Source: Terriglobia bacterium (GTDB lineage: Bacteria; Acidobacteriota; Terriglobia; JAJPHL01; JAPKYU01). Taken from it: a stretch of 64,000 nucleotides of DNA. The first letter of the stretch is position 1, and each line of letters opens with the position of its first letter. The notes beneath the pieces are model-generated. The model was not told the origin of the DNA, made no database searches, and saw only the letters and a program-made list of their open reading frames with translations. The position numbers were made by a program, and so were the translations under genes. Below are positions 2,776-58,821 of the stretch, in pieces. The stretch spans positions 931,644 through 995,643 of the forward strand of contig CBDCKA010000002.1 in the NCBI GenBank assembly GCA_965218055.1, written 5' to 3'.

Positions 2776-3889
2776 TTACGCGGGCTTGCTGTTGGTGCCG
2801 GGGCGGCGGGCCAGCAGGTAGGCGCGGATGAACCGCTCCAGGCCCCCGTCCAGGACACGATCCACGTCGCCGATCTCCACCCTGGTGCGGACGTCCTTGA
2901 CCATCCGGTAAGGCGCCAGCACGTAGGAGCGGATCTGGCTGCCGAAATTAATATCCAGCTTGGAATCCTCCACTCGCCGCGCTTCCTCGCGCTTCTTCTC
3001 CAGTTCCAGTTCATAGAGGCGCGAGCGGAGAATCTTCATGGCCACATCACGGTTCTTGTGCTGCGAGCGCTCATTCTGGCACTGCACGACGGTGCCCGTG
3101 GGCAGGTGGGTGATGCGCACCGCCGAGTAGGTGGTGTTCACTCCCTGGCCGCCGGGACCGGAGGAGCAAAAGGTGTCAATGCGCAACTCCTCGTCGCGGA
3201 TGTTCACCTGAATGGTGTCGTCAATTTCCGGCGAGACAAACACCGACGCAAAAGAAGTGTGGCGTCGCGCTGCCTGGTCAAAGGGAGAGATGCGCACCAG
3301 GCGATGCACGCCAATCTCGGACTGCAACAACCCGTAAGCGTAGTCACCTGTAACGGTGAAGGTGGCCGACTTAATCCCAGCTTCCTCGCCGGCCTGCAGG
3401 TCGTTCACGGCGGTCTGAAAGCCTTGCCGCTCGGCCCAGCGCAGGTACATGCGGAGGAGCATCTGGGCCCAATCCTGTGACTCGGTGCCGCCGGCCCCGG
3501 GGTGGATGGTGACGATGGCGTTGCGGCCGTCATGCTCCCCGCCTAGCAGGAGACGCGTCTCCAGGCGGTCCACTTTCCCCTGCAGCCGTCCGAGTTCCTG
3601 ATGCAACTCGCCGGAGACATCCTCGCCCTCGCGGGCCAGCTCAAAAAACGTGTCCAAGTCGGAGAGACGCCGCGTGAGCTCGCGGTCCGTTTCCACCACC
3701 TCGCTCAGACGCTTCCGCGCCTGCAGGACTTTCTGCGATTGGTCCGGGTTCTGCCAGAACTCAGGGCGGGAAATCTGCTGCTCGATCTCGGCTAGTTCTT
3801 TGCTGCGTGCGGGAGCGTCAAAGAAAACTCCGCACGTCGCGGATTTTTTCCTTCAGGGTGTCGTAGTCGCGTTGCAGTTCTTCCATCAT
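2776..3889 (-). CDS. prfB: Peptide chain release factor 2, programmed +1 frameshift (join 3889-3821, 3819-2776)
   Basis: Short ORF MMEELQRDYDTLKEKIRDVRSFL ends in CTT TGA C; the +1 frame continues DAPARSKELAEIEQ into the GAGGTE, SPF tripeptide and GPGGQ motifs. ATG overlaps the lnt stop. Confidence 0.96.
3817..3832 (-). other. prfB +1 ribosomal frameshift cassette (SD-like GGAG + CTT TGA C)
   Basis: Minus strand reads CGG AGT TTT CTT TGA C, matching the canonical RF2 autoregulatory site. Confidence 0.93.
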
Positions 3890-15148: not shown

Positions 15149-15205
15149 GTCCCCCTAGCAGAACGCAGAAAAAGGGCAACTGCTGAACTGCCGGGGGCGC
15201 CGTCT

Positions 15206-15360
15206 TCACGCAGAAACTTCACCGCCGCGTTTGACGCTCTGCGCGGCGGGGCAGCCTTTCTCGTGGATGCATCGCGATTTCCTGGGACGCACAGATCGAA
15301 GAGACAGCGGCCCCGCCCACCGCGCGCTCCCCCTCCGTCCGCTTTCCCTCAGCCACCTTC
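15206..15360 (-). pseudogene. Out-of-frame C-terminal remnant of the OsmC-like gene
   Basis: The +1 frame gives KVAEGKRTEGERAV and the +2 frame gives IHEKGCPAAQSVKRG (OsmC resolving-Cys CP motif), separated by about 50 bp of extra sequence. Confidence 0.55.
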
Positions 15361-15696
15361 AAGGTGATACCGGACGTGGATGGCGGTGATGAAGGGCTTG
15401 CCCTCCACGTTCTCGATCTTACCCTCGGCCTCGGCCCACAACCCGTCTTTGGGCACCGCGATATGGCGCGCTGCCAGCGCGCCGGCTAAGGTGCCCGTCA
15501 TTCAGCCGGCGACGGCGGCCACGATGTGGTCCAGCGTGGCTGGCAGCTCCTCCTCCGGCTCGAGCCCGTAAAACTTCTTGATGCCGCCATGCACCCCGTA
15601 GCGGACCGGCTCGGGGAACTCTTCGATGTAGGCGCGGCGCACCGGCCCCTCGTCCTTGTAAATGCGTGCACGCGACGTGTGAATCAAGTCTCCCAT
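15349..15696 (-). CDS. OsmC-like peroxiredoxin, probable selenoprotein (in-frame UGA at 15504-15502); C-terminus appears frame-disrupted
   Basis: AGGAAGGAG SD then ATG 15696; reads ...ATLDHIVAAVAG-TGA-MTGTLAGALAARHI..., with the TGA at the OsmC first-Cys position and the frame open for about 50 more codons; SECIS-like hairpin follows. Confidence 0.72.
15451..15496 (-). ncRNA. Putative bacterial SECIS element
   Basis: Directly 3' of the UGA: outer stem GGGCACC/GGTGCCC and inner perfect stem GGCGCGCT-GGC-AGCGCGCC; the loop starts with G, 26 nt after the UGA. Confidence 0.65.
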
Positions 15697-15819
15697 CTCA
15701 CACTCCTTCCTGCTGTGGGAAAGTATATAAAAAAACTTACGCTCCCGAAGACCGACACCCCGTGCGACGTTTCGAAGGCGACATGCGCGAGAGCGCATCA
15801 ATGCTGGCTTGCGCAGCGC

Positions 15820-36592: not shown

Positions 36593-37390
36593 TTACGCGA
36601 CTAACGCATACCGTTTGGCGAATACCACAGGCGGCATGTTGAGCGCGGAGTGAATCCGCGTGTTGTTGTAGTCCCACAGGGTGCGGTAGATCTCCGCCAC
36701 TAGCTCCCCCAGTGTTTTGAAGCGGTTCGGATCTCCCAGGTCAACCTTGAATTTGTCGTAGAACGATTCCTGGTATCCGTTCTCCCAAGGGCACCCCGGG
36801 CGGCTCCGTGAAATCACGATGCCGCATCCATCAAGGATTTCAGTGAACGCCATCGCGTCATACTCCCTCCCGTTGTCGGAGTGGAATAGACCCGGGCGCG
36901 GATGATGGAGCAGGGCGTTGGAAAGCGCCTGAATGGTGAGCGCGGCTCCCTTTCTCACCGCAACCTGGATTCCCAGGATCCGGCGGGTGTAGAGATCGAT
37001 CACGGTCGCCACATAGACCTTCTTTCCGTGCTGCACGAACTCGGTGAAGTCCGTTGCCCAGATGTGGTTTGCATATGCGGGCATGAGCGCGAGCAGGAGG
37101 TTGGGATAGGTCCGGGAAACCTTGGATTTTCTCCATTTTCTGCCTCTCCTGCGGTAGGGCTTGATGCCAAACAGACGCATGACCCTCTGCGCCCGCTGGC
37201 GGCAGAGTCCCAGTGCCGTAGCAATTCGCCGGGAGCCGTAGGAGGGATGGATCTGCAGCTCTTCTTCCAGGCGGACCTTGAGGCGCCAGTCCTTCTCCTT
37301 CATTCTTGGGACGTAATACAGGCTCGCGCGGGATATGCCAAGGGCTCGGGCAAGCGCTGATTTGTTTCTTCCTTCGCTCAATTGTTTTTT
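36593..37390 (-). CDS. IS3 transposase OrfB (DDE integrase core), reached by -1 frameshift
   Basis: YGSRRI, WATDFT, VIDLYTRRILG, HSDNGREY, WENGYQESF DDE motifs. Confidence 0.9.
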   Translation of the reverse strand, partial: KKQLSEGRNKSALARALGISRASLYYVPRMKEKDWRLKVRLEEELQIHPSYGSRRIATALGLCRQRAQRVMRLFGIKPYRRRGRKWRKSKVSRTYPNLLLALMPAYANHIWATDFTEFVQHGKKVYVATVIDLYTRRILGIQVAVRKGAALTIQALSNALLHHPRPGLFHSDNGREYDAMAFTEILDGCGIVISRSRPGCPWENGYQESFYDKFKVDLGDPNRFKTLGELVAEIYRTLWDYNNTRIHSALNMPPVVFAKRYALVA

Positions 37391-37638
37391 TGAGTCATGG
37401 AGAGCTTGAGCGTGATCTCGCCCACGAGTTCCAGGAGTTCTCTGTTCTGCTTCTGAAGTCGGGAGAACTCCGCCCAGGACGGGGCACCGGTTGCTCCTTT
37501 TACCATCCAACCATAGATGCTCCCTTCAGAAATACCGTGATCCTTGGCGGCCTGGGCCACCGAGATGCCTTCTTCCTTGACGCGGCGTAGGATATCGGCT
37601 TTTACGTCAGCTGCAATACGATGATGTTTTTTGTTCAT
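37378..37638 (-). CDS. IS3 transposase OrfA (HTH)
   Basis: GISVAQAAKDHGISEGSIYGW HTH, leucine-zipper-like tail, ending in the slippery A AAA AAC. Confidence 0.88.
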   Translation of the reverse strand: MNKKHHRIAADVKADILRRVKEEGISVAQAAKDHGISEGSIYGWMVKGATGAPSWAEFSRLQKQNRELLELVGEITLKLSMTQKNN

Positions 37639-37771
37639 ATGACACCAGGGTAGTTAATTCCCAACCTCAGTGTCTAAATTACCCAGTCCAGGGCAACGCG
37701 AAGGTCCTACTCCGCCTGCCCCGTGCCCTTTACGGGGGGAAGTTCATACGCCGCAGAAGTTCTTTGTAGAG

Positions 37772-39649
<1,878 letters not shown>

Positions 39650-51077: not shown

Positions 51078-52007
51078 TCAACCTCTGCCAAGCCGACGCA
51101 AGTGATCCCAGCCTTGGGGCGGCAATTTTTCTCTACGACCGTTTGGGTGTAGAAGCGTGATGCCACCAGTTGTCTTGGTGATCCGGCCGATTCGGGTTAG
51201 GCGAATGCCAGCCAGGGTGCGCGGAACCTTAGCCACCCGGTCGGGGGCGACAGTGAACAAAAGCTCGTACTCTTCGCCGCCATGGAGAGCCTGCTCTACG
51301 GATCCGGAACGCGGCAGGCGTATCAACTCAACTTCTGCACCAGTCCCGCTTTCTCTCGCGAGATGGTCCAGGTCGGTCGAGAGGCCGTCACTGAGGTCGA
51401 TCATGGCGGATGGCAGGCGGCGTCGGCGGAGGTATTCGCCCAACACGAGCCGTGGGCGGATCGGGGGCAATAGAAGTCCTGAGCCCAGAGCGCGGGCTGT
51501 GGCTCCCAGCCGTCCGGAAACAAACAGGGCGTCGCCGGGCCGTGCACCGGAGCGCAACACCGCTGTGCCTCGCGGCACACTTCCGCAGAGGATCGCGTCT
51601 GCCAGCAAGACTGGCGAGCCGGACGAACCGGTATCTCCCCCGACCAACAGCACCCGGTATTGGTGTGCTGCTGCGGCAAAACCTCGCAGGAACCCGCGCA
51701 CCCAAGCCGAATCAAACTCTTGGGGCAGCGCTAAGGACAGAAAAGCCCAGTGAGGTCGGCCACCCATGGCTGAGATGTCGCTGAGCGCGCGTCCCAGCGC
51801 CCGCCGCCCGGCGGCGGTCGCTGACAGCCACTCGCGCTGGAAGTGCACTCCTTCGGCGAACAGATCGGTGGTCACAATTAGATCCCGGCCGATGGGTAGA
51901 CGTAACACTGCAGCATCGTCACCCATGCCCACAACGGCACTTCTCGCTACTGGGCTTCTGCTCCGGAGACCCCGCAGAAAGGCCATGATTTCCCGCTCGG
52001 TCCTCAT
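51078..52007 (-). CDS. thiL: Thiamine-monophosphate kinase
   Basis: GMGDDAA, TTDLFAEGVHF, LSDISAMGG, GGDT, MIDLSDGL, GGEEYELLF. Confidence 0.92.
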   Translation of the reverse strand: MRTEREIMAFLRGLRSRSPVARSAVVGMGDDAAVLRLPIGRDLIVTTDLFAEGVHFQREWLSATAAGRRALGRALSDISAMGGRPHWAFLSLALPQEFDSAWVRGFLRGFAAAAHQYRVLLVGGDTGSSGSPVLLADAILCGSVPRGTAVLRSGARPGDALFVSGRLGATARALGSGLLLPPIRPRLVLGEYLRRRRLPSAMIDLSDGLSTDLDHLARESGTGAEVELIRLPRSGSVEQALHGGEEYELLFTVAPDRVAKVPRTLAGIRLTRIGRITKTTGGITLLHPNGRREKLPPQGWDHLRRLGRG

Positions 52008-52059
52008 CTCAACCGCCAACAGAGTTGGCGCCCAACCCCCCCCTTATGAAAATTCCGTA

Positions 52060-54368: not shown

Positions 54369-54444
54369 GCTGGCGTAGCTCAGTTGGTAGAGCATCTGAT
54401 TTGTAATCAGAGGGTCGGGGGTTCGAATCCCTTCGCCAGCTCCA
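54369..54444 (+). tRNA. tRNA-Thr(TGT)
   Basis: GCTGGCG acceptor stem, CTGAT-TTGTAAT-CAG anticodon arm, GTTCGAATC, CCA end. Confidence 0.96.
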
Positions 54445-54555
54445 AGTGCCAGATTGTCTGCGGCCCCGACCGCAGCAAGCTTATTGCCCGGTGGAGGCAG
54501 GACTGACCAATTGGTTGTGGGCGCAGTGAGCGGAGAGGGCGACAGGGGTAGCGGG

Positions 54556-54630
54556 GCGGGAGTAACTCAGTGGTAGAGTCACAGCCTTCCAAGCTGTTGG
54601 TCGCGGGTTCGATCCCCGTCTCCCGCTCCA
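54556..54630 (+). tRNA. tRNA-Gly(TCC)
   Basis: GCGGGAG acceptor, CAGC-CTTCCAA-GCTG, GTTCGATC, CCA end. Confidence 0.96.
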
Positions 54631-54662
54631 ACGATTCCCGTTTGTGCCGGAAGGTGGGGTCG

Positions 54663-54738
<76 letters not shown>

Positions 54739-54782
54739 GGTTCTAGCGGCAGGGGCGAACCACGACAGCGATTTCAGTGCAC

Positions 54783-54871
54783 GGACAGGTGGCCGAGTGG
54801 TTAAAGGCAGCAGGCTGTAAATCTGCCGCCCCTTGCGGGCTACGGAGGTTCGAATCCTCCCCTGTCCACCA
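54783..54871 (+). tRNA. tRNA-Tyr(GTA)
   Basis: GGACAGG acceptor, GCAGG-CTGTAAA-TCTGC, long variable arm, GTTCGAATC, CCA end. Confidence 0.95.
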
Positions 54872-55065
54872 GCTTGCTGACTCAGGCGCCAAGCTGGTTC
54901 CATTGCGGCCGCTGCCAAGGTTTGCGGTGCAATGCTGGGGCAAGCCTGCTGCGGTGCAGCGGAATTTCCTTGACGCGATTTTCTCTCGGGTCCCCCCGCA
55001 GGGGCGGTCCCCGAGCCTGTAACGTTCCAGGCGGAGAGTCCTAGGAACACGGAGTAGAGGCGACG

Positions 55066-56253
<1,188 letters not shown>

Positions 56254-56265
56254 GGAGCCCATCGC

Positions 56266-56418
56266 ATGCCGCGCGACATCGTCACCCTACAGTGCATGGA
56301 TTGCAAGAACCGCAACTACACCACGGACAAGAATAAAAAGAAGACCCCGGATCGGTTGCAGTTCAAGAAGTTCTGTCGTACGTGCCGTCACCACACGGTG
56401 CACAGGGAAGTCAAATAG
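56266..56418 (+). CDS. rpmG: 50S ribosomal protein L33 (Zn-binding C+ form)
   Basis: [50 protein letters not shown]; too short for the ORF track. Confidence 0.96.
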
Positions 56419-56453
56419 ATTTCGGGAATTCGAGAAATCCAGAATGGAAACAC

Positions 56454-56528
56454 AGGGGCGTAGGTTCAACGGTAGACCGCCGGTCTCCAAAACCGGTTGT
56501 GGGGGTTCGAATCCCTCCGCCCCTGCCA
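56454..56528 (+). tRNA. tRNA-Trp(CCA)
   Basis: AGGGGCG acceptor, CCGGT-CTCCAAA-ACCGG, GTTCGAATC, CCA end; canonical position before secE. Confidence 0.96.
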
Positions 56529-56614
56529 GTCTTGCGGGGAGCTTGAAGTGAGTCGCCCGCGTCAGTTGGGCCCGGGCGGAAGCAGAGGCAAATGAAGCAA
56601 ACGAAGAAAGTACG

Positions 56615-56881
56615 GTGACCGGGGTGGCCCGAGAAGTCCGCCACGAGGGAGGCATTTGGGGCACCGTGGACACCGTGCGGTCCTGGCCTGGCCGGATGCG
56701 GGATTTCTATCATGACACGCGGCAGGAGCTGAAGCGAGTCACATGGCCGGAGCGCAGGCAGGTGCAGGCCACAACCGTGGTCGTCATCGTAACCGTGTTT
56801 TTCTTCGGCTTTTATCTGCTTTTGGCCGACGTGGTTTTTGGTCGCTTGATTGCGCTGGTGTTCCAGAGGTTCCAAGGGTAG
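56615..56881 (+). CDS. secE: Preprotein translocase subunit SecE
   Basis: ELKRVTWP, then a single TM helix; lies between tRNA-Trp and nusG. Confidence 0.92.
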
Positions 56882-56883
56882 AC

Positions 56884-57504
56884 ATGGCCGAGCCAGAGGC
56901 AGAAAGAGCGCAAGCAGAGTCGCAGGAGCTGCAAGAGGAGCAGGAGCGCCAGCCAGTCTCGGCTACGCCGACCGGCGCCAAGCAGTGGTTCATCATCCAC
57001 ACCTACTCGGGGTTTGAGCGCAAGGTGGCCGAGAGTCTGAGGAGCCGTGTGCAGGCCTTCGGGTTGGATGAGGAGATCGGGCGCATCGAGATTCCGCTGG
57101 AAACGGTGGCCGAGCGCCGCGCGGGAAAAACGGTGGAGACGCAACGGCTGTTTTACCCCGGCTACGTGCTGGTGGAAATGGAAATGAACGACAACCTCTG
57201 GCACTTGGTTAAGGCGACTCCTCGAGTGACCGGGTTTGTCGGGACCGGCCAAATGCCGACCCCGCTGTCCCCAGAGGAAGTGGACCAGATCCTGAACCGG
57301 GCCGCCATCTCGGCTGAGAAGCCACAGCCCAAGCTTAGCTTTGAGAAGAACGAAACGGTCAAAATTATTGAGGGGCCGTTTTCCAACTTCACCGGAGTTG
57401 TAGATGAGATCAACCCGGACCGGAACACGCTGCGGGTGCTGGTCACCATCTTTGGCCGGGGGACGCCAGTCGAGCTGGACTTCTTGCAGGTGGAGAAGCT
57501 TTAG
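56884..57504 (+). CDS. nusG: Transcription termination/antitermination factor NusG
   Basis: [53 protein letters not shown]. Confidence 0.96.
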
Positions 57505-57638
57505 AAACGGGCATGGGAGAGTTTCCGACCAGGTTTGCGCTGTGGAACGCGGTGAGCCCGCTGGGCTCCAATAAGGCGAGCGGTGGGGGCGGTGGGTCAA
57601 GAACCTGTTCGGCATGATTCAGGACTAGGTGGTGAGGC

Positions 57639-58091
57639 ATGGCAGTGGCGACACCCAGAGGTAAGAGAGTTGCGGCGCGGGTCAAGGTACTGATTCCAGC
57701 CGGCAAAGCAACGCCGGCCCCGCCGGTGGGGCCGGCCCTGGGCCAGCACGGGGTCAACATCATGGATTTCTGTAAGGCGTTCAATGCCAAGACCTCGGCC
57801 AAAGAGATGGAGGGTCTGATCATTCCCGTGGTATTGACGGTGTACGGGGACCGCTCGTACACGTTTGTGACCAAAACGCCACCGGCCTCGGTGTTGTTGA
57901 AGCGTGCCGCCGGAATCGCCAAGGGATCCGGCGACCCCAACCGGAACAAGGTCGGCCAGGTGACGGAGAAGGACGTAGAGGAGATCGCGCGCGCCAAGCT
58001 CCCGGATCTGAACGCGGCTTCGTTGGAAGCAGCCATTCGCAGCGTCAAAGGGACCGCGCGCAGTATGGGCATCGAGATCATGGGATCCTGA
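57639..58091 (+). CDS. rplK: 50S ribosomal protein L11
   Basis: [38 protein letters not shown]. Confidence 0.97.
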
Positions 58092-58116
58092 CCAAAGACC
58101 TGACCAAAAAATTGTT

Positions 58117-58821
58117 ATGCCCAACCATCGCCAAGGTAAGAACTACGTGAAGGCCCGCCAGCAGGTGGAAGCCCGAACGTACAAGCTGGAAGAAGCTGTT
58201 CCGTTGCTGAAGAAGATCCGGTACGCCAAGTTCGACGAAACCGTGGAGGTGGCGCTGCGGCTGGGTGTCGATCCCAAGCACGCCGACCAGATGGTGCGGG
58301 GGACGGTGGTGCTGCCGCATGGGCTGGGCAAGTCCAAGCGCGTGCTGACGATCGCCTCCGGCGAGAAGGTGCGTGAAGCTGAGGAAGCCGGTGCCGACTG
58401 GGTGGGGGGCGATGACATGGTAGCCAAAATCCAGCAGGGCTGGATGGGATTTGAGGCGGTCGTTGCCACCCCGGACATGATGAAGTCGGTGGGACGGCTA
58501 GGCAAGCTGCTCGGACCCCGCGGCCTGATGCCCAACCCGAAGACCGGCACGGTTACCTTCGAGGTGGCCCGCGCGGTTCGCGAGATCAAGGCCGGCAAGG
58601 TGGAATTCCGGACCGACAAGACCGGTGTCATCCACGCGCCGGTCGGCAAGATCTCGTTCGAGACAGAAAAATTGGTAGAAAATGCCGGCACCCTGATCAG
58701 CAGCGTCATCAAAGCCAAGCCGGCTGCGGCCAAGGGCAAGTACGTCCGCAGCGCCACCCTGTCGGCGACAATGACTCCCGGGATTTCGCTTGATGTAGCG
58801 GTGCTCGAGGCCAGGCCCTAG
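58117..58821 (+). CDS. rplA: 50S ribosomal protein L1
   Basis: [37 protein letters not shown]. Confidence 0.97.

Follow-up and report, generated by a model that had tools for sequence, protein, structure and literature searches.

Does the minus-strand frame that opens in these lines encode a selenoprotein, and does it do so as it stands? The frame belongs to a stretch of 64,000 nucleotides from an uncultured member of the Terriglobia (Acidobacteriota), called here the window, and resembles an OsmC-type gene that is interrupted by an in-frame TGA. The motif AAGGAG (15708-15703) precedes an ATG (15696-15694), and 64 codons (MGDLIH...DHIVAAVAG) lead to the TGA at 15504-15502; past this triplet, the frame reads MTGTLAGAL... 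(MTGTLAGALAARH...) and remains open for 50 codons, up to the stop at TGA 15351-15349. An initial annotation of the DNA had described an intact, hidden gene for an OsmC-like selenoprotein, with the UGA encoding selenocysteine (Sec) and a two-tier hairpin immediately 3' of it. The Shine-Dalgarno site, the ATG, the TGA and the hairpin were all found on the minus strand as described. The sequence comparisons support Sec at the UGA at the level of the gene family, but the copy in the window is not intact, being damaged by a frameshift and an inverted block. It is likely that the locus represents a widespread family of OsmC-fold Sec/Cys peroxidases of ~155 residues, and that the copy found here is a recently formed pseudogene with two lesions. 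A scan of the window for other genes split by TGA revealed none with a hairpin and long open frames.

Table 1. Features of the OsmC-type gene and of its remnants in the window
Feature	Position	Strand	Evidence
Shine-Dalgarno AAGGAG	15703..15708	-	6 nt before ATG; bases invariant in the alignment of syntenic relatives
N-terminal 64 codons of the OsmC-type gene	15505..15696	-	Translation; dN/dS 0.08-0.17 vs relatives
In-frame TGA, putative Sec codon at the first (peroxidatic) Cys position of OsmC	15502..15504	-	Homologue codon column and OsmC structure alignment
SECIS-like two-tier hairpin	15451..15496	-	RNAfold, rarity count, covariation
50 in-frame codons after the UGA, MTGTLAGAL...HVRYHLEGG, with premature stop TGA 15351-15349	15349..15501	-	Translation; orthologues have 89-93
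TT where all relatives have a single T (+1 frameshift)	15361..15362	-	Alignments; also in L171, L176 and L177
Out-of-frame remnant, still reading KVAEGKRTEGERAVG in the next frame	15317..15360	-	Translation vs orthologue P0005
46-nt block, exact reverse complement of a C-terminus segment (IAISWDAQIEETAAP)	15271..15316	-	Exact match to the forward block of L172
Remnant encoding IHEKGCPAAQSVKRG, with the second (resolving) Cys, TGC 15253-15251, in the third frame	15224..15270	-	Translation, orthologue profile
Ancestral stop TGA of the intact gene	15219..15221	-	Alignments

Decay of the window copy

The window was aligned with syntenic relatives from the Terriglobia, where purC, the OsmC-type gene and smc follow one another in this order. 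The alignment indicates that the extra T at 15362/15361 shifts the reading frame and brings about the premature stop at 15349. The "about 50 more codons" reported in the initial annotation are thus there (50 by count), but they reflect a truncation, since 89-93 codons are open past the TGA in all members of the family except the window lineage; in the window itself, the frame after the UGA is conserved for only 49 codons before the frameshift. The second lesion is a rearrangement. Normally, ...SVKRG is followed by 46 nt that encode IAISWDAEIEETAAP. In the window, these 46 nt are absent there and lie inverted at 15316-15271, displaced 47 nt upstream of their normal place and just upstream of the block encoding IHEKGCPAAQSVKRG (15270-15224), and the three coding remnants are now in three different frames. 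The longest possible product of the window comprises 115 residues and is devoid of the resolving Cys, because the codon of the latter (15253-15251) is out of frame behind the two lesions. In the model of orthologue P0002, the lost part corresponds to helices 121-134 and 136-143 and to strand 146-155. The frameshift and the inverted, displaced block therefore destroy the C-terminal third of the protein, including the second catalytic Cys, and the notion of an intact hidden gene in the window does not hold.

A search with the truncated 50-aa product found near-identical contigs that carry both lesions. One of them (L176; ENA ERZ25067264 ctg836080_44x_l) has a length of 1.02 Mb and a coverage of 44x, and differs from the window by 11 SNPs over 20 kb (99.945% identity); the lesions are also present in L171/L177 (6x, another sample; ENA ERZ25072670 ctg252978_6x_l). 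Recurrence in two other assemblies, one of them at 44x, indicates that the lesions are real. A sister lineage (L172, L173 and L175), which is 94% identical and includes a 4.4-Mb circular contig at 22x (ENA ERZ25766727 ctg362367_22x_c), possesses the identical 64-residue N-terminal half together with an intact C-terminal half of 93 residues, and its C-terminal block is the exact reverse complement of window 15316-15271. Since both lesions are shared by other assemblies and the sister lineage is intact, the window copy is, as judged from these sequences, most likely a recently formed pseudogene of a selenoprotein gene.

Two other readings of the damaged copy were considered. The window might encode a working selenoprotein as it is, with Sec inserted at the UGA and a functional product of 115 residues that ends at 15349; the Shine-Dalgarno site, the start codon, the UGA and the hairpin are all intact, and the first 113 residues of the product are ~90% identical to those of the intact orthologues. 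This is unlikely, given the greater length of every other member (89-93 codons past the UGA), the loss of the second catalytic Cys, two helices and the last strand predicted in the P0002 model, and the occurrence of two independent lesions within ~150 nt, which indicates relaxed selection. It is very unlikely that the gene is intact in the organism and that the frameshift and the inverted block are artefacts of sequencing or assembly. The relatives do come from long-read metagenome assemblies, some of low coverage (6x), and one of them (L001) has a frameshift in a neighbouring gene that is absent from the window; but both lesions are found in the window, in L176 (44x) and in L171/L177 (6x), three sequences that are not identical and differ by SNPs, one of which lies inside the lesion region, and a comparison with L001 over 10.4 kb revealed no other coding frameshift in the window. 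The frameshift of L001 (6x) is a 1-nt deletion at ~1869, corresponding to window 19623, and it splits a 272-aa gene that is intact in the window and in L003. Low-coverage contigs of this data set do carry occasional indel errors.

The breakpoints of the 46-nt rearrangement (window 15219-15320, minus strand) are each located at most 3 nt from a CGCGG motif; their sequences, with the breakpoint marked by a slash, are GCGCGGTGG/GC, ACGCGGC/AT and CCCCGC/GGTG, and the moved block begins with the palindrome ATCGCGAT. The arrangement is of a cut, invert and reinsert type that one simple inversion cannot yield. As a guess only, a microhomology-mediated template switch may have produced it.

Probable selenocysteine at the UGA in the family

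A pseudogene in the window leaves the question of what the UGA encodes in intact members. A protein search revealed three full-length homologues and ~68 half proteins, which end at ...AAVAG or begin at MTGTLAGAL. The half proteins abut at the same TGA, and gene callers evidently break the gene there in many assemblies. The public records examined contain two hypothetical ORFs, of 64 aa and about 90 aa, and a product identical to the 64-aa part of the window is called as a separate ORF on five public contigs; the expectation that standard callers would split or miss the gene was therefore borne out.

In 168 loci from at least six phyla, the homologous codon column contains TGA 152 times, Cys (TGT/TGC) 15 times and GGA once. 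Species-representative genomes, 80 in total and spanning Terriglobia, Vicinamibacteria, Methylomirabilota/Rokubacteria, Nitrospinota, Nitrospirota, Syntrophales/Desulfomonilia and others, have 77 TGA and three Cys codons, and the 77 metagenome loci found with a Cys-form query have 65 TGA and 12 Cys codons; at least 287 genomic relatives of the family were found altogether. The initial annotation had proposed to look for homologues with Cys or UGA at this position, and, apart from the single GGA, it is these two that were found, with none of the homologues functionally ending there. Thus, the UGA is aligned with Cys, and the frame downstream of it is conserved in the orthologues. Ahead of the TGA, the dN/dS ratio is 0.01-0.23, and past it 0.09-0.29, at dS values of up to about 2, and such low ratios on both sides indicate that both halves are translated in one frame. 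Taken as sequence evidence, these data support the assignment of a UGA-encoded Sec, in most members, to the first active-site Cys position of the family.

The one GGA codon belongs to a Methylomirabilota-type sequence (P0001, locus L170, ENA ERZ27254858 k141_1497368), where Gly replaces the TGA in an otherwise intact ORF of 154 aa; possible explanations are an inactive variant, a point error and the loss of the catalytic residue in nature. The Cys forms (L050, L052, L058 and L090-L101) read TLDY..AALGS-C-LTGTL and most of the Sec forms read TLDH..AAVAG-U-MTGTL. The replacement of His by Tyr nine residues upstream largely tracks that of Sec by Cys, and Tyr is also present in some Sec forms of Vicinamibacterales and Desulfomonilaceae.

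The hairpin as a candidate SECIS element

The outer arms of the two-tier hairpin are GGGCACC (15496-15490) and GGUGCCC (15457-15451), and the inner stem is a perfect 8-bp helix formed by GGCGCGCU (15483-15476) and AGCGCGCC (15472-15465). The small apical loop, GGC (15475-15473), contains G and lies 26 nt from the UGA; the spacing in the bSECISearch model is about 16-37 nt. RNAfold, which the initial annotation had suggested as a check, predicted the same two-tier structure (-33.6 kcal/mol). The total fold energy is unexceptional for GC-rich sequence when compared with shuffles (z = -0.54), and since the stability of the whole hairpin is uninformative in this context, perfect 8-bp hairpins were counted instead. 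These are rare (11 per strand in 64 kb) and occur at the SECIS distance after four of the 802 minus-strand TGA triplets, among which TGA 15504 is the only one with long open frames on both sides.

The inner stem of the window type is kept in 14 distinct sequences, with 94.6% of cells paired and three pairs changed on both sides, including a G-C to A-U change at 27-35 in five sequences. The covariation score is 0.251 vs 0.148 in shuffles, with none of 500 shuffles reaching the observed value, and slid controls collapse; the A-U covariation is probably one event in one clade. Three clade-specific hairpins share one region, at positions 15-40 after the UGA. The window type occupies positions 22-40 after the U of the UGA, the CGCUAGC/GCUAGCG type of Methylomirabilota positions 15-32, and the CUGGCC/GGCCGG type of Deltaproteobacteria and Nitrospirota positions 16-35. 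The SECIS-like hairpin proposed for the window is, accordingly, seen at the SECIS distance in every clade and shows some covariation. The hairpins of the Cys forms are weaker on average (-12.4 vs -14.9 kcal/mol, Mann-Whitney p = 0.0015, uncorrected for phylogeny), the conserved G-A-L-A/E-A-R codons dictate part of the stem, and it is also kept by several Cys forms. A scan of 15150-15800 against Rfam gave chance-level matches only, with no model for the hairpin. Altogether, the hairpin is of moderate weight as supportive evidence and ranks below the TGA/Cys column and the conservation of the frame.

OsmC fold and active site

Searches with the Pfam OsmC model (PF02566, cut-off 27.5 bits) indicate the relationship of the intact orthologues to OsmC (42.9, 59.3, 44.1 and 33.8 bits); the truncated read-through product of the window scores 24.1 bits, below the cut-off, and 27.6 bits when the frameshift is repaired. 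NCBIfam contains no model for the OsmC-type family described here. A profile of full-length members, compared with solved structures, finds the OsmC proteins of T. thermophilus and E. coli. In the alignment, the UGA/Cys column falls on the Cys of the AGCF motif of T. thermophilus OsmC (1ukk) and of the AACF motif of E. coli OsmC (1qwi), and the second conserved Cys (EKGCPAAQS) on that of GCPVS, Cys125 of E. coli OsmC. This aligned pair represents the two OsmC active-site cysteines, of which the first lies on the long helix and the second in a GCP-type motif; the peroxidatic one is assigned from what is known of OsmC/Ohr proteins. Both positions are present in the orthologues, with Sec or Cys at the first, and the frame of the window itself contains no second Cys. 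AlphaFold modelling of the Cys orthologue P0002 (pLDDT 75.8) predicted the alpha/beta fold of OsmC/Ohr proteins, and in a Foldseek search with this model, the top 48 PDB matches were all OsmC/Ohr structures, with E-values as low as 5.6e-07.

The following course of events may be suggested for intact members. A hairpin whose start lies about 12-20 nt past the UGA would serve as a bacterial SECIS element, and SelB with Sec-tRNA(Sec) would decode the UGA in place of release factor 2 (RF2). By analogy with OsmC/Ohr chemistry, the selenolate would attack the hydroperoxide, the resulting selenenic acid would be captured by the conserved second Cys of the GCP motif, and the enzyme would be regenerated by a dithiol reductant. 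The Terriglobia copy of the window keeps the two thirds of the gene nearest to the promoter, with the UGA and the hairpin. One extra T and the excision and inverted reinsertion of the C-terminal 46-nt block limit the output to at most 115 residues, which lack the resolving Cys as well as two helices and the final strand.

Sec machinery, gene neighbourhood and decoding of the UGA

ARAGORN and searches of the 27 window ORFs with Pfam and NCBIfam models revealed no selA, selB, selC or selD in the 64-kb window, and ARAGORN found no tRNA-Sec in the window or in any of the fetched loci; the five tRNAs of the window are specific for Thr, Gly, Thr, Tyr and Trp. They lie in a standard cluster (54369-58821) composed of tRNA-Thr, Gly, Thr and Tyr, tuf (55066-56253), tRNA-Trp and ORFs of ribosomal-protein size, with no tRNA-Sec in it. 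A protein with an AIRS domain (51078-52019) was considered as SelD and rejected, as it is ThiL (TIGR01379, 242 bits). Phmmer searches with approximate E. coli SelD and SelB probes against the ORFs of ~1 Mb of fetched flanks found only ThiL and EF-Tu, and none of the four sel genes was seen in these flanks.

The context purC, OsmC-type gene, smc is kept only within Terriglobia and differs in Nitrospirota and Methylomirabilota, and the gene neighbourhood gave no functional clue across the compared loci. In the sister lineage L172, L173 and L175, smc does not adjoin the gene, and transposase and integrase genes (rve, HTH_Tnp_1) are located nearby, which indicates a rearrangement of the neighbourhood in that lineage. 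Window 37351-37696 has a 98.6% match in a 346-nt piece of L175.

The UGA might be recoded to Cys or another residue instead of Sec, e.g., by a tRNA(Sec)-like tRNA(Cys) acting with SelB. SelC* tRNA(Cys) species of Nitrospirae and Deltaproteobacteria have been described as possible opal suppressors, unusual suppressor-like tRNAs have been reported for Acidobacteria (PMC5389517), and some phyla with reported tRNAs of this kind do carry the OsmC-type family. No such tRNA was found, however, in the window or the fetched flanks, Acidobacteria are documented users of selenoproteins (PMC1794560), and a TGA/Cys pattern combined with a SECIS-like hairpin is the usual hallmark of selenoproteins, all of which makes such recoding scarcely probable and favours Sec. 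Least of all can the UGA be expected to be an ordinary stop, either between two small genes or in a split OsmC that restarts at the adjacent AUG by UGA-AUG coupling: the TGA does directly precede ATG in most members and public annotations do show two ORFs, but a split would remove precisely the catalytic position, which is occupied by Cys in 15 homologues, the second half is preceded by no Shine-Dalgarno motif, the TGA is conserved across phyla at a synonymous divergence above 1, and the TGA is followed by Leu codons (CTG/CTC/CTA) in several clades, including Vicinamibacteria, Nitrospinota and other members, so that a restart at ATG cannot explain the second half.

Relation to known selenoproteins and OsmC proteins

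With Sec as the preferred reading of the UGA, the family can be compared with known systems. As a kind of selenoprotein it is not new, since OsmC-like selenoproteins were already published in 2005, when Zhang, Fomenko and Gladyshev reported three sequences from the Sargasso Sea (COG1765, UxxT; PMC1088965); they were found again in the GOS data (five sequences) and are listed in surveys of 2008, 2022 and 2026. A published sequence, AACY01145085, was taken from the supplement of the 2005 paper for comparison. Both it and the family described here belong to the OsmC superfamily, with UGA-encoded Sec in the same column, that of the first active-site Cys, with a conserved second Cys (..KQGCF.. in the published protein, ..EKGCP.. 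here) and with a hairpin right after the UGA. At the same time, the two share 25% identity over 116 residues, with an hhalign probability of 52%. The published protein is of 137 aa, was assigned to COG1765/YhfA, carries U-L-L-T (UxxT), and is marine and rare. The family described here comprises proteins of ~155 aa with a conserved N-terminal part of ~55 residues (GVHGGIKKFY) and the motif U-[ML]-x-G-T, has OsmC proper as its closest solved structures, and is common among the Acidobacteriota, Methylomirabilota, Nitrospirota and Desulfobacterota of soil and groundwater; its frequency far exceeds that of the published marine one. Its sequence around the Sec, U-M-T-G-T, places Thr at +2 and +4 and Gly at +3 and so departs from UxxT. 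By these sequence features, it is a subfamily different from that of AACY01145085.

The searchable literature appears to contain no description of an OsmC subfamily with U-[ML]-x-G-T. The chances are about even that this is a distinct, undescribed, Sec-dominant OsmC subfamily (U-[ML]-x-G-T, ~155 aa), with Sec in about 90% of the members sampled, spread over at least six phyla of soil, groundwater and sediment, and divided into two ORFs in the public annotations that were examined.

The OsmC/Ohr hydroperoxide reductases (1qwi/1nye, 1ukk and Ohr 1n2f) share the fold, PF02566 and both active-site Cys positions with the family, but about 90% of the sampled members have Sec in place of the first Cys, and the identity is about 15%. 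To our knowledge, there has been no experimental work on the chemistry of OsmC/Ohr proteins that carry Sec at the peroxidatic site. Other bacterial thiol peroxidases with Sec/Cys pairs (Sec-peroxiredoxin, AhpD-like proteins and GPx), decoded by way of a bacterial SECIS element and SelB, likewise carry the UGA at their redox-active residue and have Cys orthologues, and their SECIS hairpin lies within the coding sequence directly 3' of the UGA; unlike them, the present family has the OsmC fold, and its hairpin sequence differs among its three clades.

If the assignment is correct, either Sec was recruited independently in the OsmC fold or an ancient Sec form is far commoner than the rare marine family suggests, and the window catches one lineage in the course of losing a Sec-dominant OsmC protein. 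Gene callers systematically break selenoprotein genes, and recognition of the family would mend the annotation of many genomes of Acidobacteriota, Methylomirabilota, Nitrospirota and Desulfobacterota and would provide surveys of selenoproteomes with an abundant terrestrial selenoenzyme. For the study of OsmC/Ohr chemistry, natural Sec and Cys forms are at hand to be compared, and the decayed window copy, together with the intact sister lineage from the same samples, makes a small, clean example of selenoprotein loss. For a specialist in selenoproteins, the finding will be unsurprising; its use lies in annotation and in the natural series of Sec, Cys and pseudogene forms.

Other features of the window

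The RF2 gene of the window (ORF 2776-3699, minus strand) contains PCRF and RF-1 domains, with the match starting from profile position 38. The sequence CTT TGA C, upstream of this ORF at ~3816-3822 (minus strand), is the canonical site of programmed +1 frameshifting, and GGAG precedes it by a few nt. Positions 37772-39649 (minus strand) encode a full-length bacterial homologue of angiotensin-converting enzyme (Peptidase_M2, 762 bits).
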